From the NCBI GenBank assembly GCA_010015585.1, contig ML975149.1: 39,049 nucleotides of DNA. One strand, 5' to 3'. Positions within the stretch are counted from its first letter, which is position 1, and every line of letters starts with the position of its first letter. The notes beneath the pieces were generated by a model. The model had not been told where the DNA came from. It worked only from the letters and a program-made list of their open reading frames with translations, and did not search any database. The stretch comes from Eremomyces bilateralis CBS 781.70 (lineage: Eukaryota). The position numbers and the translations under genes were made by a program. This document shows positions 5,471 to 38,706 of this stretch, piece by piece.

Positions 5471-5863
5471 CTTGACCGTAGTTCTCGGTAGTAACAATAG
5501 TTCAGTTCGACTGATCTGGTTATTGAAGATTAGGCTCAATTGTGAAATGGTAGTTATGACTTTGTTAGTTTGTCCTGATGATGAGTCTGAAACCAATTAA
5601 GATATTGACGCGATTCCTACGACCTTATATACTTCTCCTACATCTCTACTGGGTAAGTCTCCAATGATACTAGTGAGATGAGACGGTTAGCCAATATAGA
5701 GCAGGTCGATGGAGGTATGCAAGTTATCTTAACTCCTGTGGGAAGGAATAGAACATTATTGTTGCGATCAGGGGCTCTGTAGTCTGTTCGGCCGTATTTA
5801 ATGCTCTAGAACCCGTAACTCCGGATATCCCTTCTTTAATACTGTCCCGAGTCGAAAGAGAAG

Positions 5864-5940
5864 GTTAGACGAAGGGGGGAGAGAGAGAGATTCATACGCC
5901 CGTCAGGCCTCTCGGCGAGGCCCATGTGTTAGACGAAGGG
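5864..5940. repeat. 13-bp direct repeat GTTAGACGAAGGG flanking a ~50-bp insert; possible 5'-truncated LINE end with TSD
   Basis: Copies at 5864-5876 and 5928-5940. The insert contains a (GA)n tract and a 6-bp GGCCTC/GAGGCC stem-loop. Confidence 0.45.
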
Positions 5941-6163
5941 AGGAGGGAGGTCGGAGTTTAGTGGCACCAGTCACCGGGCACCGGGCACATGGCGATGGTT
6001 TAAATCCAGACCAACGAGACTGCCAAACTTGATCAGATAACTAATTAAGGCTAGTGAGATTTTCACCCGCGCTAGCTATTATTAGTTGAAATTAAATGAT
6101 AAATTGGGTCCAGCGCATGTTTCCGCTTCTTTAGTTCTTTTTCTCATAGATCTCAGCATAGAA

Positions 6164-10728: not shown

Positions 10729-10779
10729 TAGTTAACTGAGCCTAACTTAGTTAACTTAGTTAACTAGTTAGTTAACTTA
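10729..10779. repeat. TAACT/AGTTA array, probably accumulated Fot1/pogo excision footprints
   Basis: TAACTTAGTTAACTTAGTTAACTAGTTAGTTAACTTA lies immediately left of the MITE; TAGTTAGTT lies on its right. Confidence 0.5.
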
Positions 10780-11213
10780 ACGTAATCCACCGCCGAGCTG
10801 CGAATATCACCGAGCTGCGAACTTCAAATCTCACCAAAATCGGGATATTTCATAACCCGATATCTCAACAACAGCATCATAATAAAATCTACAAGTTGAT
10901 AGATAGACTTTACTAGTCATTTTAAGCCTTTACTCAAATTCACAGAGCTCTAGCTATTGTAGTTGTAGATATACCTAGGTCATAGTAGATTCTTGCACCT
11001 TTTAGCACCTAGGATCTAGGTATATCTACCATTACAATAGCTAGAGCTCTATAAATATGAGTAAAGGCTTAAAATGACTAGTAAAGTCTATCTATCAACT
11101 TTAGATTTTATTATGATGCTGTTGTTGAGATATCGGGTTATGAAATATCCCGATTTTGGTGAGATTTGAAGTTCGCAGCTCGGTGGTATTCGCAGCTCGC
11201 TGGTGGATTACGT
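10780..11213. mobile_element. Fold-back MITE of Fot1/pogo type with ~200-bp inverted arms and TA TSD
   Basis: Ends are TA|ACGTAATCCACC ... GGTGGATTACGT|TA. Arms at about 10780-10979 and 11015-11213 are near-perfect reverse complements around a ~35-bp spacer. Confidence 0.9.
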
Positions 11214-11904
11214 TAGTTAGTTGATGTACTTAACTAGTACTTTAGCACGACGAGTCGCTTTCGGGCTCCAGCACCATCTAAGCACAGCGAAGCAGTCCAG
11301 TTTCTTACTGGAGAGGTTTTGCAACCTCAAAAACCATTTTACAACTTCACTACAACCCACCTTTCTGTTACCCTAGGTCCTAATAGAGTTTAGTTACGGA
11401 ATAAATTCTGATGACCCACAGTTGTACTCCGTAAACTGTGTGCTACCGAACTTCCGTTCGTAGATTAGCATCGCCCTATCTGGTATAGCGCTGATTTTCG
11501 TTTTCAATGAAAATCTCACCAGCCCTTCTAATTACAGTACAGTAATTCATCATTCCCTAGTCGCAAGATGGCCCTGTTGATTTCAATTGCCACCTATATT
11601 CATTTCGCTGCCCATTACCCCTAGAACTAAGCCTATTTAGGACTGCTCAGTCCTTTCCGACGTATTTACATATCTTCAACGGTTATCTAGCTAGATCTCT
11701 TTTTTGGAGAGAAGGGGAATCGTCAATAATAACATATATTGTGTCTCTACAGTAACTGAGCTTAAGCTGCGAACCTGCTTAATCATCACCCCGCGTAATG
11801 CGACACATGCTATATTCTATGGTTTCGCCGACCAAAATAGGTCTATACCACGAATTCGCCCGTACAGACTAATTACGTGGTGATCAAGAAGATGGTCTGG
11901 ACTC

Positions 11905-12225
11905 CTATATTACGTCTATCCAGACATCTTGTCTATAGATGATGGTCTCCAGCTCTATATCACCATTAACACCCTGCCTAAACCAGTGCTGTAAGCAGAT
12001 CAAATTCCTTAAGGTGGGCGCCTCCATCCGTGTCCTCTCCGTATCCAAGATTCTCCCGCAAGCTGACCAGATCCGCTCCATATCAGCGGCCGATGAAGGA
12101 GTCACGAAAAGGTCTATCGCGATCTAATATAGAGAGGGATATCGCGTGCGATTAGCTACCCACCAGGCGATAGGAGTTTCGGTAGGGAAAAGGCCCTCTG
12201 CGAGGTATTGAGAGACCTCATTAGA
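11905..12225 (-). mobile_element. hAT transposase remnant (C-terminal dimerisation domain)
   Basis: Reads NEVSQYLAE...PIAWWVANRTRYPSLY*IAIDLFVTPSSAADMERIWSACG...LICLQHW, with an internal TAG. Confidence 0.8.
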
Positions 12226-12391
12226 TATGGGTGTTTTCCGTGGTTCTATATTATGTATCGTGACTATAATGGCAAGACCGCAAGAGTCACGTCGTCGCCA
12301 ACTTCAGGCCAATCATTATCGCCAATCATTTTGGGGTGATACTGCACCCACATCCCGTTGTACTAGGCAGAAACAGGAAACCAAAGGATGC

Positions 12392-15300
12392 TCAATCCAG
12401 GGCTTGCGCCTCGCACATCCTGCGATACATGCCGCTGTTGGCTATGAGCTCTTCGTGAGTGCCCATCTCGGCGATCTTGCCTCCGTAGAAGACGCAGATG
12501 ACGTCCGCATCCTTGATGGTGCTAAGACGGTGGGCGACGGCGAAAGTGATACGGTCGGCGTCCTTGGCGGCTTCGTTCAGGGCGCCCTGGACGATCTTCT
12601 CGCTCTCCGTATCGAGGGCGCTGGTGGCTTCGTCGAGTAGCAGGACCTTGGGGTCGCGGATGAGCGAGCGCGCGATGGCGATGCGCTGGCGCTGACCGCC
12701 GGACAGCTGGGTACCGCCCGAACCGGCCTGGGTATTCAGCCCGTCGGGAAGAGAAGAGACGAAACCCCACGCGTTGGCGCCGCGCAGAGCGGCTTCAATT
12801 TTCTCGTCGCTAACCCGTAGCGCGGCATCGGTGGACGAGAGTTCGTCCATGGTCGGGTCGTCGAGGCCGAGGGCGATATTCTCGCGGATGGAGCCTTTGA
12901 AGAGGATCGGCTCCTGCTGGACGAAGGATACGATGCGCCGGTAGAGGCGGGGGTTGAGGGTGGTGAGGTCCGAGCCGTCGATGACGATGCGGCCGGTTGT
13001 GGGGTCGTAGAAGCGCTCGAGCATGGCGATCATGGTGGACTTGCCACAGCCGGAGGCGCCGACGAAGGCGACGAACCGGCCCTTTTCGACGGTGAGGTTG
13101 ATGCCGCGAAGGACCTGGGCGTCGGGTCGGAGAGGGTAGGAAAAGCGGATATCGTCCAGGGCAATGGGACCGGCGGATCCAGGGCCCTTATCTAGGTTCT
13201 CGGGGGTTTGCCGGATGGTGGACTCTAGCCCGCTGAGCCAGAGGATGTAGTTGGCGCCGTTGACACCCTTGGTGATGCTGGTTGAGAACTGGAAGAGCTG
13301 GGCGGTGGCCTGGCCAGAGAAGAAGACAGCCAGGAAGGCAACAAAGAAATTGTACATGCTAATCTTGTCGAAGGAGAGAAGGCGGCAGCCGTACCAGAAG
13401 CCAAGGGCCATGAACCAGTACTCAATAGCCTGTGTGAAGCCAAAGCAGATCATGGCTGCGAACAACGGGGGAGTAGAGTCGGACAGAGCATGGTCGAGTT
13501 CGTTGGTGTACTGTTCCAGAACAGACTTTTCAATGGCGAGAGATGAAACGGTACGAATGGCGTTGACGGCTTCCGACGCGATCGAGGCGCTGGCGGAGTA
13601 ACGCTTCGACGTGTCACGATCGAGCTTGGAGTCCAGCTTAATCTTCAAAAAGGCAGCGCCGAAAAGAGGGGGGAGACCACCAAAAACCACGACCAGGCCC
13701 AGGTTCCAGGAGTGGGCGATAGCAAGAATGCTGCACGTGAGAACGTTCAGGACGGAGATCGTAATGAGACCGACATTGAAACCCATCAGCTCAAGAATGG
13801 ACTGTGCATTGGAATCGATGCGACTACTAAGGGCTCCGGTGCTGTTCTCCTCGCGGTCAAAGAACTGGAGATCCTGGCGGAGGATCATATCGAAGCTCTG
13901 CCTGCGCATCAGTTGGCTCAGTGCCTGGGCAACGCAGTTGGTGGACCAGCCAAGGGCGAAGTAGCTGATAAGAGCGCCGGCCGCGAGGACGATGAACATT
14001 TTGGCGTAGAAGTTGCCCTCGCGCTCCATCGCGGCGCCGGTGAGCGTGAAGACATCCATGACGTTGGCGAGGAGGATAGCTTGGCCAGGGAAAATACCAC
14101 CTTCATGCTGGTTAGCGACCGGATATTTTGAATCGGGTATGGGAAATTTTGAAACTTACTTGCACCGATGCATCCAAGAAGCACTAGTACGTACCACCAG
14201 AACAATTCAGGAGTCATCTTCATCAGGCGGAACACAACATGCAGCATACCAAATTGCTTGTGATGGTCGTAGTTGTCGCGCTCCTTTTTCGCTTCCATGC
14301 GGCCCTGGACAGACGAGGCGTACCGAGTCAGGGGCTTGTGCAGGTCCGCAGGATCTGGGTTCTGGGTGTCCTCAGTCTCCGTTTCGGACTTGCCCTCGCC
14401 GACAGCGAGGCTTTGGATCTCCACCAAGCGAGCGTAAGCACCGCCGTCGGCAATAAGAGACTCGTGGCTGCCCTGCTCGATGATGCGACCATTGCGCATG
14501 ACAACAATGTTGTCTGCCTTGCGGATAGTAGCGAGCTTGTGGGCAATGACGATTGTGGTGCGACCTTCCGCGGCCTTATCGAGGGCTTGTTGGACGACAC
14601 CTTCGGCATGAGGGTCTAGGGCACTGGTAGCCTCATCCAGCAAGAGAACCTTCGGTTGAGATACGATGCTGCGGGCGATGGCAACACGCTGCTTTTGACC
14701 GCCGGAGAGCAGACCTCCACGCTGACCGATCTGGGTGCCGTAGCCGTTTGGGAGTTCGGAAATGAAATCGTGGGCAAAGGCCATCTTGGCAGCGTGTTGA
14801 ATCAGTTCCATTTGCTTCTCGCGGGACGCGTTCTCCCACTCGGTTCCGATGAGGCCATGCTTGATATTGTCGAAGACCGAGCCCTGAAAAAGTACGGGCT
14901 CCTGCTGAACCAGGCGGACGTTCTTACGCAGCCAATTCAAATTCAGCATGTCGATGGGGCGACCATCTAACTTGATGGTGCCTGACTCCGGGTTGTACCA
15001 GCGCTCGATGAGGCCAACAATGGTGGACTTGCCGGAGCCGGATTGACCCTGAAGGAGTCGTTAGCGACGGACCAGGGTACGAAAGCCAAGGTAGAACTTA
15101 CGACCAGGGCAGTGACTTTGCCCGACGGGACCTTCAGGGAGAAGTTATCCAGAACAGTGACGCTGGGGCGAGTGGGATAGGCAAAGGTGACATTCTCGAT
15201 CTCGATGACACCTTCAGTCTCGGTCGGCTGCTCGCCATCCTCGTCGAAGGGGTCAATTGACGACTTGCGGTCAATCAGTCTAAACAGCATGACAGCAGCA

Positions 15301-16429
15301 GAAGCGGCGCGGCCGAAGTCGATAGCATAAGGAGCCAAAATGGTCAGTTGGATGGAACCAATAACAACAGAAAGAAGAACACTGATAAATAGGGTTAGTT
15401 TAGGACCGAATACAAGGAGCCAAAAGCGCCATCGTGCAAGGGTTTAGCCTACGTGAAGATTGTGCCTGGGTCTTCGATCTCGCCAGTGGCCATCATTCGG
15501 ACCCCCTGCCAGAAGGCCAGACCGAATCCCAAGTAAATTATGGTGTACTCGGCGGAAAACAGGATACCAAATAGGGGCGAGATCTTGTCACCGATCCTAT
15601 GGGTCTCGGTCAAATAGGTGTTAAATCGATTGACGAGCCTCGCGCGCATGTCGAAGGCGTGAACAGTGCGTACGCCGGAGAGAACCGCTTCTGTAAAAGC
15701 ATTACCCTGGGCATGTATCTCCATCATCTTGGTTTCGAAACCGGCCTCGATGCTGGCGACGACGCCCATAACGATGATGATGGCAGGGGCGATGCAGAGG
15801 CAGATGAGTGCAAGCTTCCACTGGACAACGACAGCGATGATGAACGCAGTGACGAAGGCAGCCAATCCCTGGAAGGTCAGGCCGAGCTTCTCTGCGATAC
15901 CGTTCTGGATCTGGCGACCATTGGATGTGGCCTGCGTCGCAATGGAGCCACCGGTTCCGAAATCGTAGTAGGCGACTTCCTGGCTGAGGGCTGCCCTGAG
16001 GTAGGCGTAGCGCATATTGCGAACGAGACGGTAGGCAACATAGGTGAACAGGCTGTTGTAGATGTACGAGAGCACCAGCCTGCCGATACCCAAATATACG
16101 AAGTAGAGGGCGAGTTCGGCGGCATCGCTCCGGAAACCGGGAGGACTTGACACCCCAGAGACGAAGCCGGTGATGACAGTGACGAATCTACCAAATATGA
16201 GGTTTTGGAGGGCAATTCCGGCGCCTGAGCCAAGGGCGGCGACGATGGCGATGGCCTGGAGAGTATACTCGAACGCGCCGCCGTACGTGAAAACGCGCGT
16301 GTAAGCGGCAAATGGGGTCATCTCCTCGGGAATATCTGGAGTAGGAGCCTTTGCGGCGGCATCTATGGGATACTCATCGCCGCGCGCCTCTTCCGCGGCC
16401 TTCTCCTTCTCGACGATATCTGCGCCCAT
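12392..16429 (-). CDS. Full-size ABCB/MDR-type multidrug transporter (TMD-NBD)x2
   Basis: Two NBDs (GQSGSGKST/LSGGQKQR/LLLDEATSALD and GASGCGKST/LSGGQRQR). Introns at about 15382-15452, 15049-15101 and 14101-14159 restore a single frame. Confidence 0.93.
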
Positions 16430-17513
16430 GATGGCGCCTGAGAGTTGTGGTGTTGACAACCTGGTGTACCTACGTCAACACCTAGACGACCCTGTGGCGA
16501 TGGATTGAGGAAAGTGGGAACAAAGGAGCGGCAGGAATGCAAAGCGACTTAAAGGAAAGAATATCAGGATCCTTATGCCCTTGAGCGGACAAGTCAGGGA
16601 AGAGAAAATACAATACAATGGTTTCGGGAAACAGGCAACGAAAGAGTGCCCTGCAAAGTTTGACCCAAAGATCTGTAAGCTGGAACGCGCGGATTCTACG
16701 AAGTAGTTATGGGACGCGACGAAATCCATCTCTTCTTGGGTCCCGTATAGGCTGGGCCTTGGCTAATTCGAAGTTCATAAGAAGGTGATGTGTACGTTAG
16801 GCAGGTAGGTTCGAGCCAGCGCGACCCGCGCGTCCCGGACTGAACACCAAGAGATTTGGCGGGCTGTGTCAACGTTCGAGAAGAAAAGAAAAGTTCTGTC
16901 TGAAATGAAAATTAGTCTCAGATACCTCAGCCGCTGAAAGGCACGTGACAAGGAAGATCCGAAGACTTGGCGCCACTACCAACAGCGTCTGAGCCAAAAT
17001 CCCAGGATTTGGTGTAGCTTTCCCAACCGAAATCACGATAACGAACATATTGAAGGCCATTCTGCTGCTTTTCGACAACTAATTGGCGTTTAAAAAAAAT
17101 ATAGATACTATACTTTTGATTATTACCTTTCAGACTATCTACTTTTAAAGAGTCCCTACGCCCTATGGACTGAGATCAATTGCAATCTAGTTGCACTATT
17201 CCATGTTAAGGGCTCTCAACATATTTCCATCCATCTCGACTCCTGATGCACAATATACCCCATTAAGATCCGTATATCCATCTAAAACATATAGAAAATA
17301 TACTTTCAATCATTCTCTGTAAGGATAACTACTTATAAAGCAATCTCCCCTTCTGGATATTGAGATTAATTCGGGTTTAGTTGACCTATCCCTGGCCTAT
17401 TCCTTCAAACGCTGCCAAACTTGCTCAAATATTCCTTAAATTATAATACATATTCCATCAAAGTCAATCCCCCTATCATTAAGAGTCCTTATACAGTATA
17501 GAACATTCTCTTT

Positions 17514-20191
17514 ATGCCACCAAAGCAGAAGCGGGGGGCTAAACCAAAGCAAGACTGGCGAACCAACATCAATCTATTTTCCGAAGTCGACCCAGTTAAG
17601 AAGGAGGAGCTGCAGGATATACAAAGGAGAGTTGAGAGGTGTAGGGAGGCACAATGGCAGGATCAGATATTGGTGGTTAAAGAAGGAATCCAGTCCTTCT
17701 TTGGGTTTGAAGCAAAGGATGACCAGGCACGGTGTATTGCACACCTCCTTTTCAAACAGAGAGACCTGATCTTAACTGCAAAGACATCCTTTGGCAAGAG
17801 CTTAATCCATCAAGCACTACCATGCCTCTCTAGAGGATCTGTTGCCATTGTGATCGTCCCTCTTGATGCACTTGGTAAAGAGCAAGAAAAGAAGATCTCA
17901 TTAATCCCTGGAACCCGACCAATCTTCTTAAATGCATCAAACACGAACGATGGAGTGATTCAAGAAGTACAGAAAGGTGCTTACACTCATATTATTACCT
18001 CACCAGAGCAATTGATTGGCAAGAGGTTCCGTATCCTTATCCAGGATCGGCTCTTTCGGTCCCATCTGCTCTCTGTTTGTATTGACGAGCTTCATCTCGT
18101 TTTTGACTGGGGTGATAAGTTCCGCCATTCCTATACAGAACTACGTATCGTCCGACGGGAGCTTGAAGATATTCCGTGGTTTGGAACCACTGCAACTCTG
18201 GACCGGTTAACATTATCCCATGTCCGGGGGCTCCTAGAATTATCAGACCATATTCAGGTTATTCAAACAGACACCAACCGAGAGGATCTTACCTATATTG
18301 CCAAGCAGATCCCTATACATACACAGAAGTCATTTCTCGGGTTGAATTTCCTGCTCGAAGGTGCATTTCGACATTGTGTAAACAGGGAACAAGACCTACC
18401 AGGGGGATGTTGTGATGCTTGTCATTGTCAAGGAAAAGGGTTTATACCTACGCCTGAGCAAATTGATAAAACCATCATCTTTTTTAAGGCAAAGCGCGAG
18501 ATCCGGGAGTGCACTAAGATAATCCGTTCATGGTTCCAAGAATATGGATATTCTGAGATACTAGCGAAGGACACAGTGGCACAATATGGTACCATGCTGA
18601 CCTAAGCGAACATGAGAAACAAGGGATATACTCAAAATTCTACCATTCCCCTATCAGGATCCTCCTTTCAACAGATGCACTTGCACATGGTTGCGATATT
18701 CCAGATATCACAAGATCTATTATATGGAAAATTCCTCCTGATAATCTGATCAACCTTATCCTACAACGGTTTGGGCGTGCTGCTCGAAGCGTGCCAGCTG
18801 GGACTGCTATCCTTTTCTTCCAACAATCTTACCAAGGGCACCGAACTCGTGCAAAAGATATGCAAAAGGAGCATCAACACCAGACTACTCAGGGAGGTTT
18901 ACCCGAAGGAGAAGATCCAGGAGACCTCAATTCATCTACTTCAGATGATGACGATGATGAAGAAGAGCCTTTAATAGGAGAAGGAGCTAAAGGATCATCA
19001 TCTCGCGAAGACCATTTGAGCCAAACCCCCAAAGGCCAGAAATCGAAAGCAAGACTATCAGAAGCAGAGAGACGTGGACTTCTCCCTAACACCATTTACC
19101 AGCTCTGCAATACCAATGGTGAACGGTGGATCCGGGAGTTAATCAATACACACTACGAATGCAAAACACCAGAACGCGACCCTATTACATGCTGTGGAAG
19201 TTGTAACCCTGAACTCCTGTCTACTTTGGACACACAAATCAAGACTAGCCAGGACAAGGCAATGGCTGCAAAGAGGCTTCGACCATTAGTTGATTCCCTT
19301 AAACTCTTTTTTTATAAAGAGGCGCAAAGGGAATATCCAACTACGGACATTTGTTATACACCATATTAGCAATGGTTAATATTCCGTGAGGAACTATCAA
19401 TACTTGCAAACACATACAACCAGCTTCAGGAGAGCGTGCCAAAGGAACAAAAACCAGATGGATATTATATCCTTCTTTTTGGAGATTTGCTAGACATTCG
19501 CAAGGCTTTACCACAAAACGAATGGATACGTGAGGATGGACATTTGATAAGCCTAGGGAAAGCATTGGAGAGCTATAAACATGCTCAGTACCAATTAAAG
19601 GAAGAGAAACAGCGCACGATCGAAGATAAAAGGAGGCAGGCTTTGGCAAGGAAAGCTCAAGAGAAAGAAAGGTCACAAGATAAAGCGATTGGCCTATCCT
19701 TATTGTTTGAGCCTGGACATCCAACCTTTACGCCCCATTTGAAGCCCCCTTGCCCATCTGTCAGTGATGCTCCTCAGCCTATACAAGAGCATCAGCTATC
19801 TCCAGTTACACAAGATACTAGTGCTTACCCAAAATCCCCGAAACGACGTCAAGGTGCACAAGTACAACAGCTGTATACTCTTCCAGATATTTCGAGCCTC
19901 CCTGAAGGTAGCAGCCTCCTCAAACTTCTAATGCCAATGTCTACTATTGGTGATAAAGATCTAGCACCAACTAAGCGACGGCAGCAAGGGCAGAAGTTGG
20001 TAAATCAACCAGCGCCTTTACAGCCGATGGCTACAGATCATACCATCCTCCCTCTCCGACCAAATAGCGGTGATCAATTTCAACATGATGAGACTTTATA
20101 TGACCCACTCCGAGTAATGATCTTATATGGATCATATGGTAGCAATAAAGCATCGTGTACATCATTGTCCTCCTTTTTTCGAGCAGTATAG
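17514..20191 (+). pseudogene. Transposon-encoded RecQ-like SF2 helicase with frameshift and premature stop
   Basis: Motifs AKTSFGKS, DELH, TAT, WYHADLS, TDALAHGCDIPD and QRFGRAAR, plus Zn-like C...CCGSCNP. An extra AT at ~18584-18587 shifts the frame, and an in-frame TAG lies at 19367-19369. Confidence 0.85.
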
Positions 20192-22620
20192 ATTGAGAAT
20201 GCAAGATGGATGATATCCCGCTGTGCTGAGCTGATAGTATAGGAGTCATTGATCTTGATCTTAAATGTGTCTTCTAAGTATTTAGAGATCTTCTGAGTGG
20301 CAGACATAGCCCATACTCCATGGGAGAAAATCTTCTCCATGCCAAATGTCGATGTTGTCCCATGGGCTGATAGGTAGTCTTTGATATTCCGATTCAAATG
20401 CTCCACGTCAAGATCAAACTCATGCCACGAGTTTAGACTCCTCTCCTGATTGTTAATCAAGCCCCCTGCTAGGATAGCATCTTGTAAATCCTTGTCGGAG
20501 GCTCGAGTACATGTTTGGGTAAAGAGGAGAAGCATCTCATATCGGTATTAGTCTCGCTTAGCTCCTGCAAAGATAATGGCATACTGTGCAAGTGCCCGTC
20601 GGAGTTGACCAATATCACCAAACTTGATTGCATATCGGAGGGTTAGGTAGGCCTCGACGATTGAAATAAATCGAAGATGGTTTATACGCTCGATCTCGCC
20701 GAGTCTCTTTTGTGGAAGTGAGGATCCTGCATACTTTTTGAAAGTCTTGGGTGGGATTGTTTCCGAAATGGTCTTGTATGCTGTAGGCGAAAGCCAGTTC
20801 CGGAGTGTCTGCATCTCTGCTTCGTAAGGAAGGTCTTGGGACTGGGCCCGGGCGTCAGCACTGAAGAGCTGTTGGTAAACTGCATCAAGACAGGACTGGA
20901 ATTGAGCTGGTGATAGACCTCCTAGGCGTGTTGAAAGTTGTTCAATGTTAGGGGGATAGAAGCTGCCTGTAACGTGTTCAATCACGAAGCAAATAACTCT
21001 AGCATAAAAGCTATGTATAATCACTTCTTCCATGATCTTGAATGAGGCATTCTCGCGAGAAAAGCCACGTCGGTTAAGGAAGGTTGCGCTGTGACAAAGA
21101 GTCGATGAAAGGAAATTGCAGCTTTCAATGCCATAAAACTCGCGGGTAATCAGATAAAGGAAATTCAAGCGTGTATGCCAAAGGGCTGGGACTGGATGTA
21201 GCCAGTTGTAAGCATCAAAGGGCCTTTCAGAATCAGCACGCTCTTTGATACAGCTCCGAAGAAGTCTGACTGTTTTAACATCTCCATATACCAGGAAGAG
21301 GCGTTCAGTAAAGTCTGTCTCGATATTAAACTTAAAAAAATCTAAGAATATCTTCTCGAGGATTTGGTGATTCCCATTTGTAGTAGACTGGTTGACTGGT
21401 ATAGGCCCAAGGTTATTCTTCACTGTCTTCTCTGCTTGGAGTCGATCGATTGTTGGAAACTCAGGAAGCTTAATCCGTTTCGCCTTCAGTTGTCGAGTTG
21501 CGTCAGGGAGGGCTAATTCAATTGCCTGCCGAATCAGGAATAAGGCGTTCTGTTTTTAGATGCCTGAAGCATCAGGTAATTGGACTCCATCATAGTTGAA
21601 GAGATGTGGAGGCCGGATGGTAAACGGTCTCCGCATTGTCTGTACAAGACCATTTTCAGGCATCCGAGGACAGACTGCTGCAATTCCAGATGTATAGCTG
21701 AACATCTCGCCTGTATTCCCAATCCGCTGATGGGATGGTCGCTCATGCCCATCACAATTGTCCATTGCAATGGCCAGTCCGGGATATTTTGCAAACCGTT
21801 TAAGGCTATGCTAGATGTGGTTAGAAAGTTGGAATATAGTATCATATGACTGTAGAAAAAATACCATTTCTGTGCTGATTGTCTCCTGTGTAGAATCTCG
21901 AAGCGTATTATATGTAGGAGTCATCCCGAAGGCATGGAGATACTTTAGACCTTTGCGAGACAGACCTGCAGCTTGTAATGTAATCCCAATTCTCTTAGGA
22001 AGATTATTTGATAGCTTTTTATGCCGGGAAAAGGCCAATGAGGACGCAATCATTGTAGTGAGTCCATGATGAGGTTTCTGGCCAGATTGTTTCGTCTTGC
22101 TTAGGGTTGGGCAACTGACTCAACGATAGAGAAGAATAATGGTGCCCTATGTCGGACAATCTGGTGCATGCTTCCAACATTCCCAGGGGTCTTTTCAGCG
22201 TCCCATGCCCCAAAAAATTGAGATTCGTCTTGCATCAGGTTTTCAAATTCATCTGCGATGATGCAGGTAAAGACATGTCGAAGAATAGAAAGAATACGCT
22301 TAGGCTTATGCTTGATGATATAGCGTTGCGTGTCGGAATCAAGGAGAATATCAAGAAGAAACCCTTCTACAAGTTGATGCTTTCCAGTCTGCCTTTGCCC
22401 TGTATGCTTATCGATCATAAAAAGGAGGAACTGGTTCCTAGAAAAATGACCCTTCTTCATCATTGCCATGATTTCGGTATAGCAGGCATGAGTTGCTTTG
22501 TTTTGAGCTTTCGGTGTAGTATTCGGGGCACCATCATCGGTGAACGGAAGGGAAAAGTTAGAGGGGGTATCTTCGGCCTCTTCAATCGACTCTTCTTCAG
22601 ATAATGTATCATCTGTGTCT
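20080..22620 (-). pseudogene. Academ-type (DUF6589-like) DDE transposase, disrupted
   Basis: Candidate catalytic motifs AMDN, VYGD, PVPALWH and DLDVEHLN. Intron 21811-21864 (GTATTT..CTAAC..TAG). In-frame TAA at 21556-21558 and 20548-20550, and a frameshift near 22101. The 5' end is uncertain. Confidence 0.75.
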
Positions 22621-24181
22621 GAAATTATTTATCATTTAGTATATGATCATTGTAAGGTTAGATAGACATACCGTATGAAGTTTCACAATTAGAGGATAAA
22701 GACATCTTTAGTGATGTTCAAAAACTAATAGATAATGTGAAGCTTGATCTAACGATTCAAATGATATTAATATTATGTTATGAATATGTCCGGTCTCAAC
22801 AATCAATTCAAGATAACTTTCATACATCACCACATATAAGGTGGCGGGAAAGGCTCACGAAGGCAGGACTTTCTGGCTTAGGCCCCCGTCGTGCTGGCTC
22901 CGCCAATCACCTTCAGGGGGATACCAGGGTCCACCGAAAGGTGGCCTGAGGTATCTGAGGCTAGTTTAGACGACATTATCGTTTAGAGTGTAGGCGCTAA
23001 CTAGATTAAGGATCTAGCGTCGACAGTGTGGATGAGGTAAGCTTCAGCTGACGAACCAGGGGCGCGGATAGTGCCATCCCGGCGATGGTAGGACCGAGAC
23101 ATGCGTATGACAAATGATGCAGTTCGGGTGAAGGCCATGTGAAATACAAGACTTCGTAGCATGCGTGTGTTAGTGCTGACGGTGACTCTGTGGGTATGGA
23201 CCAGCAACCACAACTACCACACAGTATTGACAAACATTGTGACGTTCTCCTTGTACTTTTATCTCCCCTGTCCAATAATGCCAATTACTCGAAGCGATAC
23301 TGCAGAGTACGTACTTGTGGTCCGCGCCTCGCTGAAATAAACTACAGAAATAACTCTGCCAAGCTTCACTGTACCGGGGAAACTGTGTGGCCACGGATGC
23401 ACGCTCATGTCCTCCAGATCTCATTGAGCCCGAACAAGGTGTACTGAAGTACTAAACAGGGGGTTCAATGGCTGGTCAAATGTAGGAGCAGACCAGCAGC
23501 AAATTTATATCCGGGATTCTCCGAATAGAGTTGTGTACAGCACTCAAAAAATACCCGTACCTCATGGGCCCCATTGCGATACAACACTGCTCCGCCTCAC
23601 GAAGTACAACAACCTCAAACTAGCTTGATCAAAGCCTAACACTGACGCAGGCTGTCCTTTCGCATCGGGGGGCATGTTACATCTCAGGTCGAGACTCCCA
23701 GCCAAAGGGAGACGCTAGAGCCAAGGGCAGGATGTACGACAAGGAAACCTGAAGGTTCAAGGCCCTATACGGGACCCGTTCACCTCGGAGCTCCGGCTTA
23801 CTATGAAGACCTGCAGGTCCGGGCATCCGATTTTGAGTTGGACCGCAAGTCTCCATTACTCTGGCTGATGACCGTGGCAAAGATCCTCTGGTCTTTGAAG
23901 CAGGCTGCGTATTCATTCCATCTCGTTCAGGGAATAGAACGTGTTCCATCAAATCGGCGTCTACATGGCGCCATTTGCCAGCTTCGGATCCAAAATCTGG
24001 GAGGTCGTACACACCAGGTCTGGCTTTCCAGGAGCATACAAAAGAAAGACGATGTCATGCAAAATATTCAAGACACCCATTACAAGCTCTCTCAAGAAGA
24101 AGCATATAGACAAGACCGCCTCAGCTGGCCCCGTGACACTTCAACATGGGACGTCATCGCGTGTCTTCCTCTGTCTCGTTG

Positions 24182-27100
24182 ATGAGATGGGCTACTCTCC
24201 TTTGGACTCTTCTTTGCTCTTCAGCTTCCGCTCTCGAAACAAAGCCCCAGGCGACTTATCCACTCCCGCATGAGGCGGAAACCTCAGTCATATCGTCGAA
24301 TGTCCTCCAAGTGCGAGCCGACGTGAAGCCCTTCACTCTTCGTATCATGCCCTTGGGGGCATCCATCACGGCTGGATATGGCACTACTTTCGAGCAAGGA
24401 TATCGGAAGCCCCTCAGAGACCAGCTACGTTGGCGCGGCTGGCCTGTCAACATGATCGGGAGCTCACGTGGCGCCTCCGAGGTGAACTTCAAGAACGATC
24501 AACATGAAGGCCACGGGGGTCACGTCGTTAGCCAGACAATCGATGACTCAAACCTGAGCCTTTATCGGATGCCCAACCTGATTCTCATCAATTGCGGCAC
24601 CAACGACGCCGCCGGTGACAATGTTCCGACCACGGGAGATAGAATGAAGCTTGTCTTAGACCATCTTTACAACAAGGTTGACAACGTCACTATCATCCTG
24701 TCAACCTTGGTTCCCAGACTCGACGAATCCGCCGCCGATACATCCAGCATCAGCGCGCAGTATCGTACGCTAGCTTCGAACTACGCCGCGGCCGGCCGCA
24801 AAATAATACTCGCAGAACTGGGCAGTGGTCTCTTTGACAGCAGCACGGATTATTATGACAAGATTCACCCCAACGACAAAGGCGCAGCGAAGGTTGCGGC
24901 AGTTTGGGATCAAGCAATCTTGGAAGCAGAGGACAGGAATTTCATTACGGAGGCCATCGACACCGGAATCCCCGATATTAGCAACGGTGAGGATTCTGGA
25001 GGACAGGGCACATGTGCCGTCGTTCGTGGAGGCCTGCGCGGGCCGGTCAAGACGCAGTCAGGCTGGGGATACAACGACGGCACGTATGCGCATAAGGATG
25101 ATTCCACGGTTGGTCCGATCGACCTCGGGCATACCGTGATAGGTGACATCGAACCTGGAACAGGCGGTATTTGGTTTGCTCAGTTGGTCAACCCGGGAAA
25201 CGCTGACTTCGGTGACTATCTCGACGAGCTTGTCTACTGCACGGACACGGGGCCGGGCCAGGTGCCCGGGCCATGTCTCATGTGGGAGAACTCGGACGGC
25301 AACTACAACAAGATTGACGCCAAGCGCCTGGACATCGGTCTCAAATGCCTCGCGCGAGGCATCCGCTTCGGGGATGTCAACGGGGATGGTCTGGACGACG
25401 CCATCTGCATCAACCAGGAGGCGAAGATGTACGTGGCCATCAACAAGGGCGGAAACCCTCCTACCTTTGAGGTCCTTGAAAACGGCGGTCTCGTCCGGGG
25501 TACCGGCAGCGAGCAAACGTGCGACTCCCAGGCCCAGGTCAGATTGGGTGACATGGATGGCGATGGTCGTCTGGACTACTGCTGCATCGACAAGAAGGGT
25601 GACATCTACTGCTGGCGCAACGGCGGCTCGGGTAAAGCGCCAACCGCCAAAGAGAACGGCTACTGGCAGGAACTTGTGAGTCTCGAGGTGTCTCTTCTCC
25701 AATCTCTCGTGACTGACATCAATACCCCTTTTAGGTCGGCGGAATCACCTTTAAGGCCAAGGGCGAGGGCGAGGGTATCGATGGAGTCCGTTTCGTCGAC
25801 ATCAACGGCGATGGCCGAACCGACTGGGTCTACATACACAAGGACGGATCCAGCGATATCTACGTCAACCAGCGTGGAAGCTACAGCGAAGACGGTAAAG
25901 GCCTCGCGCCTCACTGGGCGAAGGCATCGTCAACCCACGCGGCGTTCGGCGGGCTGGACACGCGGGACAATATCTATTTCGGTCGACTCCAACCCAGATC
26001 GTCTCGCGGCGACAACCTTCCCGCTAGAGCCGACCGTATTGTCGTGCAAAACTTGACAGCAACCGCGGGTAAGAATGACCCCAAGGTACAGCTCTTCTTT
26101 CAGACCAACCTGGGCGCCGGTGGTACGAAGCTCAAGGGAGACGGTGTTTTCTACTGTGATATGTTTGGCAGTGGCAGCGACGGTGAGTGTTCCTTGTCTG
26201 TCATTCCTCGTGATATCGGCTAAGATGCAAGAAAAGACTATCTGTGGGTGCTTTCGACGGGCGCCATCACCCTGTTCAAGAACATCCACTCGCCACCTCA
26301 GTGGGGGCCTCTTGGACAGATCATCGACATCGAGAGGGACCGAAAGAGCATTCATTTCGTAAGTTGGAACGCAAGTCGCGAACATCCTGGGAAGCTGACG
26401 TATCGACAACAAGGGTGACTGGGATGGTGATGGAAAGTGCGACATCCTGGCGGTTGAGCGCCATACAGGCCGCGTCGAGTGGTGGCGCAATCTCTACAAG
26501 ACCGGCGACAAGGTGCCTACCTTCGCTGCCCCCAAGTGGGCTGTCGACTCCTACGACCACCTATGTACCGAGGGCTGGGGTAACGGCGTCTATGACTATG
26601 GCCTTGAGTTTGCCGATCTTGGTACGTGCTCATCTTCGTCGAGAGGTATATTGTGCAAGGTATTGACTATTAGAAAGATGGTGACAAGAGGGTTGACTAC
26701 TTGTGCATGAAGAAGAATATGCAGGTCTTTGGGTCCTTGAATAAGGCGGGAGGGCTTCAGTATAAGGATCAGATCAAGCTCGCCCCTGATGAAGGCAAAC
26801 TGGACCGAGCCAACTTCAAGTGGGCCGATGTAAGTGATCATGAGTACCTTGGCCTAGGCCCTTTGTCTCTGGTAAGGAAATATGTTCTGATCAAAGCATC
26901 TCTCCGCAGGTCAACGGTGACGGAAAGGCCGACTTGATCTGGGTCGACAAGTTCAATGGCAAGGGACGCCTCTGGACTAACGGCGGATTCACACCGGCCG
27001 CCAGCAGTAGCATGACCTGGAACTACGAGGGCTTTCGCTTCGACGGCTACGGCCGCGGGCAAAACATTCACTTCCCCAAGATCGGGACCAGTGGCCGCGC

Positions 27101-27332
27101 TGACTACCACGATGTCTGGCCGGATACGGGAATTTCCAACACCTGGTTCAACGAGTGTTCGCGCGAAGGCGAAGGTCAGGATGACTACCCGACTCCCATT
27201 GACCCCAACTTACCTGTCGTGGGTTCATGGGCTTCGTTGAATCCAACTTGGCAGGACCTTACCCCGGAAAGTGTCATTGTCACGAGCAAGGGTGACTTCA
27301 CCATCCCATACACGGACCATCAGGTTTATTCC
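24182..27332 (+). CDS. Secreted SGNH hydrolase (carbohydrate esterase family 3-like) with FG-GAP/VCBS repeats, probably 3'-truncated by a transposon
   Basis: Signal peptide MRWATLLWTLLCSSASA; motifs MPLGASIT, HEGHGG, GTND and DKIHPND; repeated DxxGDGxxD. Introns at about 25676-25734, 26183-26236, 26359-26413, 26622-26676 and 26829-26909. The last frame runs into the piggyBac-like left end and stops at 27356. Confidence 0.85.
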
Positions 27333-29831
27333 ACTTTAGCGCTGACAGGGGTATGATGGCGCCCAGTTAGTGTACTTCTAGAATCCAATCACAACGCGGT
27401 ACGAAAATTACAGCCTTTGCGCCTTTTTGCCTGCTCCATTGCTCATTGCAACTCTACTTGGTACTATCCAAACGATGAACTATGCTTTCGATGCTCCCAT
27501 CAACTTCAGACGCCGCCGCTTCCGATAACGAGGTATCTGAGGATGAGCTCACCACTGAATTTGTATGGAGAGTGCCATCTGATGCTACCACCGCTGCGGA
27601 AGTGGATTCGGAGCCCCAATTACAGCAACCTCAGGTTGAACCTGCAACATCCTCCGCTGGATCTCTCCCTACGCCAATTGGACGACCTGGGGATGCCTCC
27701 TACGTAGCCATTGATCCTGCTACTAAGAGGCCTCTAGGGCAGCCTGGAGCGTACTTTGAAAAGATGAAAGGATACGTCTCATACTATCACTACCCCGAAG
27801 CGTTGCTTGATCTCTCCATTGGCGTCCAAGGCCCTCTCTGCGCTACCGACACGGAGAGTGTATCCTGTGGGACTCCAGGTTGTACTGGCTGTGGGATTTT
27901 CCATAGCAATGGTCTATCCCTAGACCCCATGCTTCACGATCGCCCTCTAGCTTCCTTTGAAGAGCTTGCTAAGCGGTGGGATCTTCCGCTTGTCCTTTTC
28001 TCCCAGTTATTTGATGAAGGCATGTATAAGACGATCGCAGAGCACTCCAACCTATACGCCCAAAGGCATGAAATCTCGATTAGGCCTGTCACCGCCGGCC
28101 ATATCCGAATATGGCTTGGCCTTGTCCTTTACATGGGTACCTTCAATATCGCTTCTCGGGGGGATCTCTGGAGTAGGCACGGCCAGCGGCCTCTCCACTG
28201 TATCTCTAGGTTTATGTCCTTTAAAAGATGGAAGCAGATCAAACGGATTATCCACCTCTCCAATCCAGACACAGAGCCGCAGCCGCCCTCCGTCTTCGAC
28301 AAAGTACAGCCAATTGCCTCGCTTATAGGTGCTCGCTTCAGCCAGGTATATCTTCCTTCAAACTACGTCTCAGTCGACGAGATTATGGTTAAGTTTACGG
28401 GTCGATCGAAGGAGATTGTCTCAATTAAAGGCAAGCCTATCCCTGTTGGCTATAAAATCCTTGCCCTCGCCGATAGAGGCTATGTTTATAACTTCCTCTT
28501 TACCTCAGGGGGAAGCTTTGATACTGGAGGAAGGAAGGATACATCATCAATCCATGGTGTAAACTATCAGCCCCTCCCTGGATACGAGAATCTTGAGCTT
28601 ACGGCTACCTCAAAGGCGGTAGTTACCTTGGCAGCCTCTCTTCCTGTCGCTCTCCGCAAGTTTGTTATCTTTATGGATAACTACTTTACCAACATTCGCC
28701 TACTCTCCGTCCTTCGAAAAATGAGGATTGGGGCCTGTGGAACGACTAGGGCGTCGTATAAAGAGTACCCATTACAGCACTTCAAAGAGGCAAAGGACAA
28801 TTGCAGATGGCCGCTTCAAAAGCAGGGTTCCCTGTGCGTTCGTGATGTTGCCAGCCTCTTATGGAAGGATCGGGTACTCGTACGTTTCCTCCATACCATT
28901 TTTGAGCCAGAAGAAAATGACTGGGTACCTCGGAGGCGTCCGGCGACTGGAACAGCTACGTACCAGCGAGAACTTGATCAAATCTATCCTCCTGGGGTCC
29001 ATGAGACACCGGTTCTACAACCTAAAGCCGCTATACTGTACAACAGCTTCATGGGAGGTGTCGATATCGCGGATCAACGTCGAGCCTACTTCACATCCCA
29101 CCTGATTAGCCAGAAAACATGGCATCCTATTCTCTTCTGGATGCTCGACACGACTGCTTCGAACGCCCATATCCTCGGTACATGCCAGTTTCGGAAGCAG
29201 AATATTAGATATCTACAGAGCCTTAAGGATTTCCGTCTACAGCTTGCCTGGAATATGGTCATCAAAGGTATTTCAGATGGTCATGGTTCCCGAGTAGTAC
29301 AGGGCTTCAATGAGCAGGAAGGTCCTCAAATTCGAGGCAACCGAGGGATCAGGAGATCCGGTAACTCGTACGTACGGCCAAATACAGAGTTCCCGTATCA
29401 TACTACTCTTAGAAGTGGTGTTCATCGCTTGGCACGAATTTCAAGAGGGATGCGACGGTGGTGTTGGATGTGCAAGTGGAAAAAGCTAAGGGATACCCAA
29501 ATCAAGGACCGAAGGACCTTCTTTTGCTGTGAGGTCTGTGGAGAAGGATTTCCTCTCTGTGTTTGTTGTATAGAACCATTCCACAGTCAGAGACCTAGCT
29601 AGATACTACTAGATTCTTCTGTAACTAAGTTAGTAATTTTGTCTATTTACTTTATGAGGTCTGCATCGAATCGAATATGACGCCTTGATAAGTAAGAACT
29701 TGAAATTCTTCCAAACTAGGCCAAGTGCCTCAGGGGTGGTGCTAGCGCGGCCATGCCAAGTGGTATGAAAACCCAGTAGGGGATTTGGTGGGAAAATATC
29801 ACCAGCCTTTCCCGATTCGGCACGCTAAACT
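27333..29831 (+). mobile_element. piggyBac-family DNA transposon with short imperfect ends
   Basis: Candidate ends ACTTTAGCG (27333-27341) and CGCTAAACT (29823-29831) surround an intact transposase. No TTAA TSD, so the boundaries are tentative. Confidence 0.6.
27482..29602 (+). CDS. piggyBac-type DDD transposase, intact 706 aa
   Basis: Motifs VSVDEIMVKFTGRS, KPIPVGYK, FMDNYFT and YNSFMGGVDIADQ; C-terminal Cys-rich domain CWMC..CEVC..CVCC..H. Confidence 0.92.
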   Translation: MLSMLPSTSDAAASDNEVSEDELTTEFVWRVPSDATTAAEVDSEPQLQQPQVEPATSSAGSLPTPIGRPGDASYVAIDPATKRPLGQPGAYFEKMKGYVSYYHYPEALLDLSIGVQGPLCATDTESVSCGTPGCTGCGIFHSNGLSLDPMLHDRPLASFEELAKRWDLPLVLFSQLFDEGMYKTIAEHSNLYAQRHEISIRPVTAGHIRIWLGLVLYMGTFNIASRGDLWSRHGQRPLHCISRFMSFKRWKQIKRIIHLSNPDTEPQPPSVFDKVQPIASLIGARFSQVYLPSNYVSVDEIMVKFTGRSKEIVSIKGKPIPVGYKILALADRGYVYNFLFTSGGSFDTGGRKDTSSIHGVNYQPLPGYENLELTATSKAVVTLAASLPVALRKFVIFMDNYFTNIRLLSVLRKMRIGACGTTRASYKEYPLQHFKEAKDNCRWPLQKQGSLCVRDVASLLWKDRVLVRFLHTIFEPEENDWVPRRRPATGTATYQRELDQIYPPGVHETPVLQPKAAILYNSFMGGVDIADQRRAYFTSHLISQKTWHPILFWMLDTTASNAHILGTCQFRKQNIRYLQSLKDFRLQLAWNMVIKGISDGHGSRVVQGFNEQEGPQIRGNRGIRRSGNSYVRPNTEFPYHTTLRSGVHRLARISRGMRRWCWMCKWKKLRDTQIKDRRTFFCCEVCGEGFPLCVCCIEPFHSQRPS

Positions 29832-29851: not shown

Positions 29852-30060
29852 TGTTATGGTCCCAGGCCTGTGGCCTGAGCCCTTGAGTATGGCTGACGCC
29901 ACAGGGATGTGGCTAGTGGATGGCACAAAGGAGATAGGAACAAAGGAGGTATCTCCTATATCTAGCGCGCAGAGACGCTGGGAGGTTTCTTCCTTCTCTC
30001 TCTTCAGTTTAGATTAATGGAACTTGGTAATCGCAGACCTTGCGCATCCAAACCGTGTCA
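29852..30060 (+). mobile_element. Solo LTR (209 bp) with 5-bp TSD CTAGA
   Basis: Ends TGTTATGGTCCCAGGCC...CCGTGTCA, with CTAGA at 29847-29851 and 30061-30065. Homologous to 38399-38620. Confidence 0.88.
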
Positions 30061-31231
30061 CTAGACGCCGTTTGCTTCTTATGAAGGAGTAAAGTGTATC
30101 CGTAAATGCTGCAATCATAAACTTCAGTTACTTTATCTACAAGTATTAAAGACATAGTCTATATCTATACAATTAATAGAATGCTAAAAAATCTTGTTGA
30201 TTAAATACGTTTGTTTCCCTTGGGAGATATTAAGTGAAGTGTTACTAACTAAGTGCTAGTTACTGAAGTCTGAACTTATAATATGGACATGGTACGGATC
30301 AAATTATTTCCGTTGTCTAGAGCTAAACCCTCACAAACTTGAGGTTCAACCCTCAGCTTTCTGCGGCATCGGCTCCAAGATCGATACGTTAGATGTAGGG
30401 CCGGGGGACCAGGCATTCAGCTAGAACACACAACTTACACACAACACACACAATACAAACAACTTCGCTACTATAACAACAGCACCTAACTCCCAACCAT
30501 TTTAGCACATCACGTACGACAATTCCATACGTTCGTAATTACCATATTCGACACTAGTGCATTGCTTAATCTCAATTTCAGCCTCTGGAGCCCGAAATTC
30601 CGAGCGAGTCTTTGTCAGAGTCTGCGGTTCTGGCCATCTGGGGCATTCCGGGCATATGCCAACGCCTAGCAATTTGCTTGTTGGACAAGGATGGGAATTG
30701 GACCGTGGCAGGGTGGCCCGGGTCGGGTTGCCGCATTTGCGTTCACTAGCTCAAACGCTTGGACCGCAATCTTGGCACTAACCCCCTCACCGAGCGGATG
30801 GTATGGGCAGCACAACGACAGGCCATGGAGGACGAGGATGGCGCATGCTGTCTCCTTGGTATCTCCAATATCTTGTGCCACTTATCTATAGGCCACAGGC
30901 CTAGAACCATAACAGGGGGAGAAATCTCACCAGCCATTAATCAAAAAATCATTAGGTACCGGACTACCGGTACAGTATTCAGAGATGTTTTGTAAAGGAG
31001 AAGGTAGAATTCGATTATCCCCTTCGTCATCGCAGTACACAAATTGGCAGGAGCTTTATATCACGTGAATTCCTAGTACCCAATAAGTTTCCAGCATTCT
31101 TAATCCCACTATGATACAGCATGATAGGTCTAACTGAAAAGGGGCTGTGTGTGTACTGCTGCAATGACGACAAAGGGGATAAGCGGAAAGAAGTTGGAGG
31201 AGGTGCTTCTATCCATGAAATAAATTTAACA

Positions 31232-33025
31232 TTAGAAAACACCTAGCGCAACTATTCCAACGACAAGTCGCTCCGCCCCGAGAAGCGCTGCAGTCATAGG
31301 ACCAACTGCAGCACCTGAAAACGGGGCAGGTCGAGATGAAGTTAATACTGCAACAGGGCTAACGGAGCTGTGCAGGGATGCTTCTGAGGGAATACGTTGC
31401 TCGGTAGACGCGGGAGCGGGACGAGAAGCAGGTGTCTTAGCCGACGCGGGAGCCGGGCCAGGAGCAGCTAGCTCAGTCGACGCGGGAGCCGAGCCAGGAG
31501 CAGCTAGCTCAGTCGACGCGGGAGCCGGGCCAGGAGCAGCTAGCTCAGTCGACGCGGGAGGGGGATGAGGAGCTGGTGTCTCAGTCCACGCGGGAGCCGG
31601 GTTAGGACCAGGTATCGGGGACCACGCGGGAGCCGGGTTAGGAACAGGTATCGGGGACCACGCTGGGGCCGGGTCAGGAGCAAGTATCGGGGACCATGCG
31701 GGAGCCGGATCAGGAGCAGGTATCGGGGGCCACGCAGGAGCCGGGTCAGGAGTAGATATCTCAGTCGGCACTGGAACTGGGCCAGGATCAGACAGGGCAG
31801 GAAGGCCTACTAGGATGCTGCTAACCGCCGAGATAGCCGCTCCGATGGCCGGCATCGTTGTCGTGGTCCCAGTCACACTAGCCCCCTCTTCCACCGTCCT
31901 GGTGTACATGACAGCTGGAGCGCTCGTGGCAGTACTAGGAGGAGCACCATTTGCTGGGTCACAACCAGATCTGATCGGAGTTCCACCGAGCTGCTCAAGA
32001 ATGGTGGGAAGGGAGTTCAAGTAGTCAATCAGTTCAGATGGAGGTGAAGCCCCGGCAGTAGGAATCGCGTCAACGGCGTAAATCAGAGACGCCGTTTTAA
32101 CGGCTGCTGGCAGCGTAAGTGATGCAACGGTGGTGACGCAGCCTGTGGCTCCGGGCTGGGTGGTTCGGAATGTGTGGTAGAAATCCGTGAAATAGAGATA
32201 GGTCGTCGGATAAAACCTAAACCAGTCAGATGCCGCCAGAGTGAGAGAAATGGTAAAGGGTTGCTAACAATGTCAGGCCAAGCGTCTCCCACGTGAGATC
32301 TGGCTCCGGCGCAGGTGTTCCTAATTGACGAACCGACGTGCTCGTGACCCGGGATCCATCGGCCAACTCGGTCACAATTACATCAATTGCTGCCGTGGGT
32401 ACCGTGGCCGTTGTTTGGAAAACTGCGGTTGGGTATGACTTTTCAGTTAGCCTTGGGCGGATAATGCTAAAGGAACCTCTAACTTACAAGGACGCTGGCG
32501 GTAACATCAACTTGACATCCTCCCGGACATGTCCCACTTGGTACTGAACGAGTTGATGTCGAGGCACCTGAATCAAAAAGTCAGCCTGAGAAGGGGCAAT
32601 ACGATAGTCACTATACGAAAGAAAATCGAACCAGGATTGCCTCCTGAGCTGGTAGACCTCGAGCCGGAAAGCGAAGAGGAAGTTGAAGGAATACTTAGAT
32701 TAGAAGGAGACTGACTTTGTGTTGTCGTAGACACTGTGGACCCGGACACGGTAGTAGTCACCATGGATCCAGATGCAGTGGCAGTCACCGTGACAGTCGT
32801 TGCGGAATTGGTGCCCGGAACAGTAGAGATCTCCGTGATAGTAACTGTGTCGTTCTGTCCTGGCAGTGTGATGGTGACCTTCTCAGTCTCAGTGATGGTA
32901 TCCCTGATGGTCTCGACGGTTTTTTCCGTAACAGTAAGAGTCGTTGTCTCCATGGTAGCGGTAGTTACGTCGAAGAGTGCTACCGCAATCCATACTGCTA
33001 TGATGTCCTTCCAAAGTCTCGTCAT
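31232..33025 (-). CDS. Secreted Ser/Thr/Pro-rich, probably GPI-anchored cell-surface protein; 4 exons
   Basis: Signal peptide MTRLWKDIIAVWIAVALFDVTTA and a Thr-rich tract. Three GT-AG introns between about 32218 and 32632 give a continuous frame (…LFYPTTYLYF…). C-terminus SGAAVGPMTAALLGAERLVVGIVALGVF is hydrophobic. Confidence 0.8.
31405..31750 (-). repeat. 36-bp coding tandem repeats of two unit types
   Basis: About 4-5 PDPAPAWSPIPA-type units, then about 3-4 APGPAPASTELA-type units. Confidence 0.85.
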
Positions 33026-38620: not shown

Positions 38621-38706
38621 ATACTCGGTCTGCTCCTCTGTATTTATGCATCATCTTCTTCTTTCCTCTAGATCTCTCTTTTCTAGACAATGGGAATCGC
38701 CAATAC

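Follow-up and report, generated by a model that had tools for sequence, protein, structure and literature searches.

A RecQ-like helicase gene and a broken gene that faces it on the opposite strand, both lying between short inverted repeats, raise the question of whether they belong to the host or together form a transposon. The locus lies in a 39,049-nucleotide stretch of contig ML975149.1 of Eremomyces bilateralis CBS 781.70 (assembly GCA_010015585.1), called the window below, and an earlier note had read positions 16913-22963 as a decayed two-gene transposition system in an ascomycete. Our data support that reading: the segment is very probably a dead copy of a two-gene Academ-type DNA transposon, with a predicted DDE transposase, an 8-base stagger and an accessory RecQ-like helicase, and none of the three observations that the note had named as fatal was made. 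The element and its terminal features are the following.

16913..22963, no strand: whole element, 6051 bp, GC content 43.6% against about 50-60% in the flanking genes
16913..16930, + strand: left terminal inverted repeat, starting TAG and holding two CTCAG units
22946..22963, - strand: right terminal inverted repeat, pairing with the left repeat
16983..16994, - strand: inverted inner copy of the second terminal unit, left side, 10 of 12 bases
22876..22887, + strand: inverted inner copy of the second terminal unit, right side, 9 of 12 bases

The 18-bp TAG...CTA repeat described earlier was found, with 17 of its 18 bases matching. Inverted pairs of at least 17/18 arose in 6 of 20 block-shuffled windows, so that the repeat alone is modestly above chance and, taken by itself, is weak evidence for element ends. 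The ends are fixed by a second copy, because it starts and stops at the same bases within unrelated flanks. This copy 2 (G000:C1:1431459-1437815, 6357 bp) was among nine matches when the genome was searched at the DNA level with the element; it matches element bases 1 to 6051 and not beyond, and 5593 of 6026 aligned positions are identical (92.8%). The check proposed earlier, whether other copies end at the TAG/CTA repeats, thus came out in favour of the element. Other fragments of the family lie on contigs C6, C35 and C59; the one on C59 (L100 3992-4188) is a 198-bp left-end fragment, 99% identical to the left end in the window, with another flank and within a repeat cluster. Sister families in the same genome end in TTACCTCAG or TTATCTCAG, in register with the TAGYCTCAG of the window's family and and all of them hold a second CTCAG unit. 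At 11 of the 12 ends examined, a candidate inner copy of this terminal unit, in inverted orientation, was located 65-120 bases in, with 8-12 of 12 bases matching. The inner unit at 16983..16994 is likely an extra putative transposase-binding site.

The minus-strand gene carries the transposase. Spliced joints are taken from run X2, which is presumed to be an RNA run from the GT..AG joints in neighbouring host genes and whose contigs give no level or start.

22672..22705, - strand: transposase exon 1 with start codon
22619..22671, - strand: transposase intron 1, GT..AG, from a spliced joint in X2 and a frame check
21865..22618, - strand: transposase exon 2, N-terminal, no Pfam match, frameshift near 22103
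21811..21864, - strand: transposase intron 2 with in-frame acceptor, whose position is kept in 6 of 6 sister loci checked
20080..21810, - strand: transposase exon 3 (DUF6589; predicted RNase H/DDE core with a large helical insertion), stops at 21556-21558 and 20548-20550

The encoded protein matches DUF6589 (PF20231) in two pieces (E 2e-41 and 7e-11), far above the cut-off. All four motifs claimed for it were located: MDN (D codon 21760-21762), YGD (21280-21282), PxxWH (H 21175-21177) and DxxxEHxN (D 20413-20415 and E 20401-20403, counted where both copies align in register). A word-index homologue search with the copy 2 transposase gave no match at E ≤ 0.001; this blank reflects a limit of sensitivity, because a profile built from seven genome copies drew 2521 matches at the same threshold from 1.84 billion proteins. 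The names of ten homologues that we looked up held nothing useful. In an alignment of 116 rows, made of four genome copies and 112 of the best 150 of the 2521 proteins chosen for coverage, the acidic and histidine residues are conserved (first D 44/48, second D 108/113, H 112/115, final D 104/104 and E 100/105), and of 113 homologues, 87 have a Q directly after GD.

At the sequence level, the transposase profile had no match among solved structures (best E 0.08). The AlphaFold2 model of the copy 2 transposase core has a predicted local distance difference test score of 89 and a predicted template modelling score of 0.90, and a wide structural search with it placed the P element transposase first (Z 9.4, 283 residues aligned, root-mean-square deviation (rmsd) 5.2), followed by integrases, Tn5 and Hermes (Z 8.9, 283 aligned, rmsd 7.2). 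The top 11 rows in Foldseek, among the matches listed, are Hermes transposase. The predicted model of copy 2, taken with the conserved D, D and E, supports a DDD/E core of RNase H fold. The neighbouring Atlas clusters belong to DUF6589 and come from Basidiomycota, Mucoromycota, Cnidaria and Mollusca; in one of them, 14% of the members have PHD fingers. An animal sublineage of AcademH bears PHD. In the supplement of PMC5751038, the Academ RNase H profile has DNxD at 3-6, GDQ at 190-192 and DxxxE at 450-454; the distance from first D to E is 451 residues in that profile and 453 in the window protein, which carries DNxD, GD and DxxxE. Compared by eye, these motifs make a strong but unscored case that DUF6589 would be the Academ transposase core. 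With DUF6589, a predicted DDE fold and Academ-like motifs, the minus-strand protein is of the kind the earlier note had expected.

At transposase intron 2, X2 shows a splice at 21806-21864, to a second acceptor that lies five bases further on and is out of frame; its use would yield a short N-terminal protein. The in-frame acceptor keeps the frame and the same position in all six sister loci and is therefore taken as the ancestral one. The tandem acceptors lie at 21806-21815, five bases apart, and the second is present in both copies of the window's family.

The plus-strand gene and its upstream region contain the following.

17094-17150 and 17284-17340, no strand: two imperfect 57-bp direct repeats upstream of the helicase, 75% alike
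17319..17380, + strand: intron (GT..AG) in the 5' untranslated region of the helicase transcript, spliced joint in X2
17514..20191, + strand: RecQ-like superfamily 2 helicase gene, broken, with a frameshift near 18584, a stop at 19367-19369 and a 3' end hit by a deletion

Domain scans found DEAD (E 1e-13) and Helicase_C (E 1e-11), in agreement with the description of two genes facing each other within the repeats, and RecQ proteins score best among solved structures (E 5e-18). The gene retains intact Walker A, DExH, motif III and motif VI together with a remnant of a CCxxC zinc site, and the RecA lobe begins within about 70 residues of the protein start. In a tree of 38 rows, the helicases of the window, copy 2 and five sister families form one clade with 23 database relatives (support 100/100), apart from the Sgs1-type host gene (L085), a second host RecQ (L086) and bacterial RecQs; nine of 36 database matches (under 600 amino acids) were excluded from it, and no Hrq1 or telomere-linked helicase (TLH) reference was included. 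The two host proteins have RecQ_Zn_bind plus RQC (L085) and RecQ_Zn_bind (L086), and the element helicases scanned match neither domain. The traits of a host RecQ of the Sgs1 type, namely single copy, RecQ_Zn_bind plus RQC and grouping with cellular RecQs, were not found in the element helicase. Nor is it a syntenic single-copy housekeeping RecQ, since the host RecQ genes lie elsewhere and branch outside the element-helicase clade.

These results bear on whether a host RecQ or telomere-linked helicase lies by chance beside transposon debris within a chance inverted repeat. The 17/18 pairs in shuffled sequence would allow for this, as would a helicase that is transcribed and spliced in X2. The idea is refuted by copy 2, which holds both genes between the same ends at another locus. 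The separate host RecQ genes and their branching also speak against it, as do the place of the window near the middle of a 2.4-Mb contig and the early RecA lobe, which leaves no room for the N-terminal C2H2 motifs of a TLH; the TLH comparison uses this internal position and missing room, as the tree holds no known TLH sequence. We regard a chance neighbour as practically untenable.

Duplication length was read from the flanks of eight end pairs, compared in six registers. An 8-bp duplication is present in seven of the eight, perfectly in six sister-family pairs and at 7 of 8 bases in copy 2, and no consistent match was found in the 3-, 4-, 7-, 9- or 10-bp registers of these pairs. A 9-bp duplication via shifted ends was also considered and rejected, as it does not fit the flanks. 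The genome holds 21 DUF6589 matches, several beside a helicase, and the facing arrangement recurs in sister families, some with long open frames; the window family protein is about 30% identical to those of the sister families. In metagenome data, 8 of 26 loci have a helicase, always downstream on the opposite strand, and it is present at five of the six loci with at least 3.7 kb downstream; target duplications were sought at nine of these loci, none convincingly found.

Several sister copies have unusual structures. One helicase-transposase family sits, at one and the same site, within an end of a sister family and is flanked by an 8-bp duplication of its own (L078 4789-4885, L079 4947-5044, L081 2186-4119); this composite has at least two different outer flanks and so seems to have moved as one unit. 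An internally rearranged sister copy (L084 607-6995, G000:C6) is flanked by a perfect 8-bp duplication; the open frame over its helicase runs to 1779 codons, and the copy possibly carries extra sequence. A distant DUF6589 match in a 1130-codon open frame (L035, G000:C3:560509-561018) could be another family or a domesticated gene.

Compared with copy 2, the window copy has a deletion.

20093..20094, no strand: deletion point, 326 bp of copy 2 missing, removing the transposase C-terminus and the intergenic gap

The element had been called complete. This holds for its ends, which are both present, but not for its interior, where 326 bp are missing and both genes have a frameshift and internal stops, the decay that had also been proposed. 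Copy 2 is broken at other sites, and as judged from the reading frames neither copy is able to move by itself. Rates of C transition between the two copies are similar across contexts (CpA 0.13, CpG 0.16, CpC 0.10, CpT 0.09); repeat-induced point mutation is therefore not supported as the cause, and ordinary decay accounts for the damage. The window copy appears to be transcribed, because two X2 contigs match it without differences. The deletion junction is crossed by an X2 contig without differences, and the X2 introns within the element are those at 17319-17380, 22619-22671 and 21806-21864. Among the 15 joints listed, none skips the element to give an empty site; three of the five runs hold the stretch, from two studies, and this carries no weight either way.

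The ratio of nonsynonymous to synonymous change (dN/dS) between the two copies was estimated by a counting method with no significance test. In the helicase it is 0.15 in the N-terminal half (356 codons), 0.41 in the next 256 codons and 0.78 in the tail; in the transposase it is 0.29 in the core and 0.37 in the N-terminal part. With these ratios in the helicase N-terminal half and the transposase core, both genes show purifying selection between the copies and were thus maintained while the two sublineages were active.

The window copy itself has unusual flanks.

22964..23070, + strand: outer 107 bp of a pogo/Fot1-type (DDE_1) terminal repeat, outside the element, cut off exactly at the element's right end

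The pogo-type element has 22 matches in the genome; in four further copies that were inspected its repeat runs on inward, but the piece found here breaks off at the last base of our element. On the left, the element is flanked by the region upstream of an ABCB-type transporter gene that starts about 480 bases away; the transporter's X2 contig stops at 16854, short of the left end by about 60 bases, a weak hint of a transcript start. The left junction is bridged by 32 bases in DNA contigs of runs X1 and X3, and among the matches listed no contig bridges the right junction. A pattern search for the reciprocal rearrangement product gave five ends, all accounted for; of 24 pogo-end matches, not one breaks off at the corresponding position, the nearest (on C51) being interrupted elsewhere. 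Contig C48, which repeats window 10766-17267 at 99.97%, was rejected as a third copy; it is most likely an assembly overlap, because the ABC gene and the right flank have equal DNA depth.

The right-end junction with the cut pogo repeat points to a later rearrangement. In the simplest history, the element would have inserted into the pogo repeat and then lost everything on its other side, either through a deletion that the transposase initiated next to the end or because two copies recombined. Such a deletion likely joined the left end, beside the ABC-transporter gene, to the right end inside the pogo repeat, and likely removed the duplication.

The same junction suggests another reading, in which the helicase drives a replicative route, copy-in or peel-off, that leaves the donor in place. 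Intramolecular replicative transposition leaves a flank cut exactly at the element end without a duplication, as seen here; near-identical sister copies are numerous, and a helicase of the 3'-5' type is under stronger constraint than the transposase core. Against this, the lost duplication is accounted for just as well by recombination between two direct copies, the solved structures closest in fold belong to cut-and-paste enzymes, and no donor-retaining intermediate, circle or cointegrate was seen, so that we consider a replicative route unlikely. Less likely still is its extended form, in which the ascomycete elements with 8-bp duplications form a separate Academ lineage moving by this route and the window copy is the product of an intramolecular event that deleted neighbouring DNA; the event would have brought the element's left end to about 60 bases or less from where the ABC-transporter transcript apparently starts, and the element would now supply the upstream control region of that gene. 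If true, a helicase-driven replicative route would be new among eukaryotic terminal-repeat transposons.

For the two-gene transposon with an 8-base stagger we propose the following steps. The transposase would bind the CTCAG units that recur at each terminus and a short way inside it, cleave the DNA at the TAG...CTA ends, excise the element and join it to the target with an 8-base stagger, as its predicted fold suggests. Cut-and-paste movement is inferred because the nearest solved relatives, the P element and Hermes, are cut-and-paste enzymes. The helicase might then unwind or remodel the strand-transfer product so that the 8-base gaps can be filled, which is the least certain step and a tentative one. 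Such a putative role in product processing fits the remark in PMC10045372 that duplication length seems linked to the accessory enzyme.

Alternatively, the helicase could be a passenger kept for some other benefit, such as countering host silencing, with no part in the transposition chemistry. The RecQ-type QDE-3 belongs to quelling, a fungal RNA interference defence (PMC5751038), KolobokH carries a RecQ helicase independently (PMC9587614), and there is no strong CpA-specific mutation bias between our two copies. Yet the facing arrangement is fixed across distant families, and duplication length tracks the accessory enzyme from one Academ lineage to another (PMC10045372). A pure passenger is in our judgement improbable.

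Some of the evidence weighs against a helicase-assisted Academ-type transposon with an 8-base stagger. The window copy lacks a target duplication, its flanks agreeing at 3 of 8 bases, the 8-bp figure for its family comes from one copy with one mismatch, three of the six perfect sister pairs were joined across contigs on the strength of their flanks, a partly circular step, and the sole metagenome locus with both ends (L103) has non-matching flanks. For the transposase, the spacing from first to second D is 160 residues against 188 in the Academ profile, a comparison made by eye, unscored and on 4 of about 19 profile parts. A Foldseek search with the copy 2 core gave no match at E ≤ 0.001, a Z of about 9 is little above the 7-8 that the structural tool calls common, and the splice observed at intron 2 is out of frame. 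For the helicase, long branches meet in the tree, and dN/dS, which rises to 0.41 and 0.78 towards the C-terminus, shows maintenance only.

Other features were noted in the window. The full-length ABCB-type transporter gene occupies 12392-16431 (- strand), with a spliced transcript in X2. A fold-back element at 10778-11215 has arms of 114 bp at 97% and 93 bp at 92% and very high read depth, and is likely a miniature inverted-repeat transposable element; contig C48 leaves the path of the window there. To the right of the element lie a GDSL-type hydrolase gene with FG-GAP repeats (24137-27356, + strand, several X2 introns) and an uninterrupted frame of 706 amino acids (27482-29602, + strand) with a piggyBac-type transposase domain (PF13843, E 1e-46) and a cysteine-rich tail. 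Inverted repeats of 25 bp, 1013 bp apart, enclose nested repeat pieces at 29852-30914, and related pieces recur at 38399-38632 and at many other loci. A 36-bp tandem repeat of 10 copies (31336-31811) codes for a Pro/Ala-rich stretch of a minus-strand frame.

New here are a distinct TAG-ended family, the match by eye to the published Academ profile and the selection estimate. The locus adds sequence evidence of joint selection with the transposase to the question of what a transposon-encoded RecQ helicase does, and the tie between DUF6589 and Academ would let annotators recognise many fungal pairs of 'RecQ plus hypothetical protein' as transposons. As the window copy is dead and a poor exemplar, experiments would be better served by those sister families of this genome whose frames are open.

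Among known systems, the closest is AcademH, reportedly defined by Kojima in 2020 (Mob DNA). A literature search on Academ ends in fungi found nothing. According to PMC10799480, AcademH occurs at low copy number in Basidiomycota, Ascomycota and Mucoromycota, and our element resembles it in the DNxD/GDQ/DxxxE motifs of its transposase, Academ-type by eye, its DEAD/Helicase_C helicase, which lies within the ends in both copies, its length of about 6 kb, its low copy number and its ascomycete host. An autonomous fungal Academ family is 6026 bp long, and Marasmius Academ families have 9-bp duplications and start TAGTCT or TAGCCT (PMC8290104, table S3). The ends of the window's family begin in the same way, with the TAG common to Academ terminal repeats, whereas sister families in the same genome start with TTA. 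The terminal repeats differ: 18 bp here against 159-167 bp in three Marasmius families (PMC8290104).

The fold relatives are more distant. The P element (6p5a) and Hermes, a hAT transposase (8edg), make 8-bp duplications; they differ from our element at about 10% identity and rmsd 5-7, and to our knowledge they encode no helicase and have other end sequences. KolobokH is likewise a fungal DDE transposon with a RecQ helicase (PMC9587614), but our element is not a member, the helicase here being a separate, facing gene. Pfam assigns DUF6589 no function, and a literature search for the name found one paper, on stripe rust; here the family is linked with transposon ends, with a predicted DDE fold and, by eye, with the Academ profile. 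Duplications are reported as 9 or 10 bp in AcademH and 3 or 4 bp in AcademX, and among Academ lineages this length seems to go with the accessory enzyme (PMC10045372). The traits of AcademX were not found, with no nuclease family in the eight frames scanned and no consistent match in the 3- and 4-bp registers. Nor were the duplications of AcademH, the best scores being 4/9 and 3/10 in the 9- and 10-bp registers; the window copy also differs in being broken, with its duplication lost. This suggests that duplication length varies within the helicase-bearing lineage. The earlier assignment to AcademH thus holds for the helicase, the TAG ends and, by eye, the Academ-like transposase motifs but not for the duplication, and the sequence evidence supports an AcademH-like variant rather than a textbook member of AcademH, because its duplications are 8 bp and not the reported 9-10 bp.

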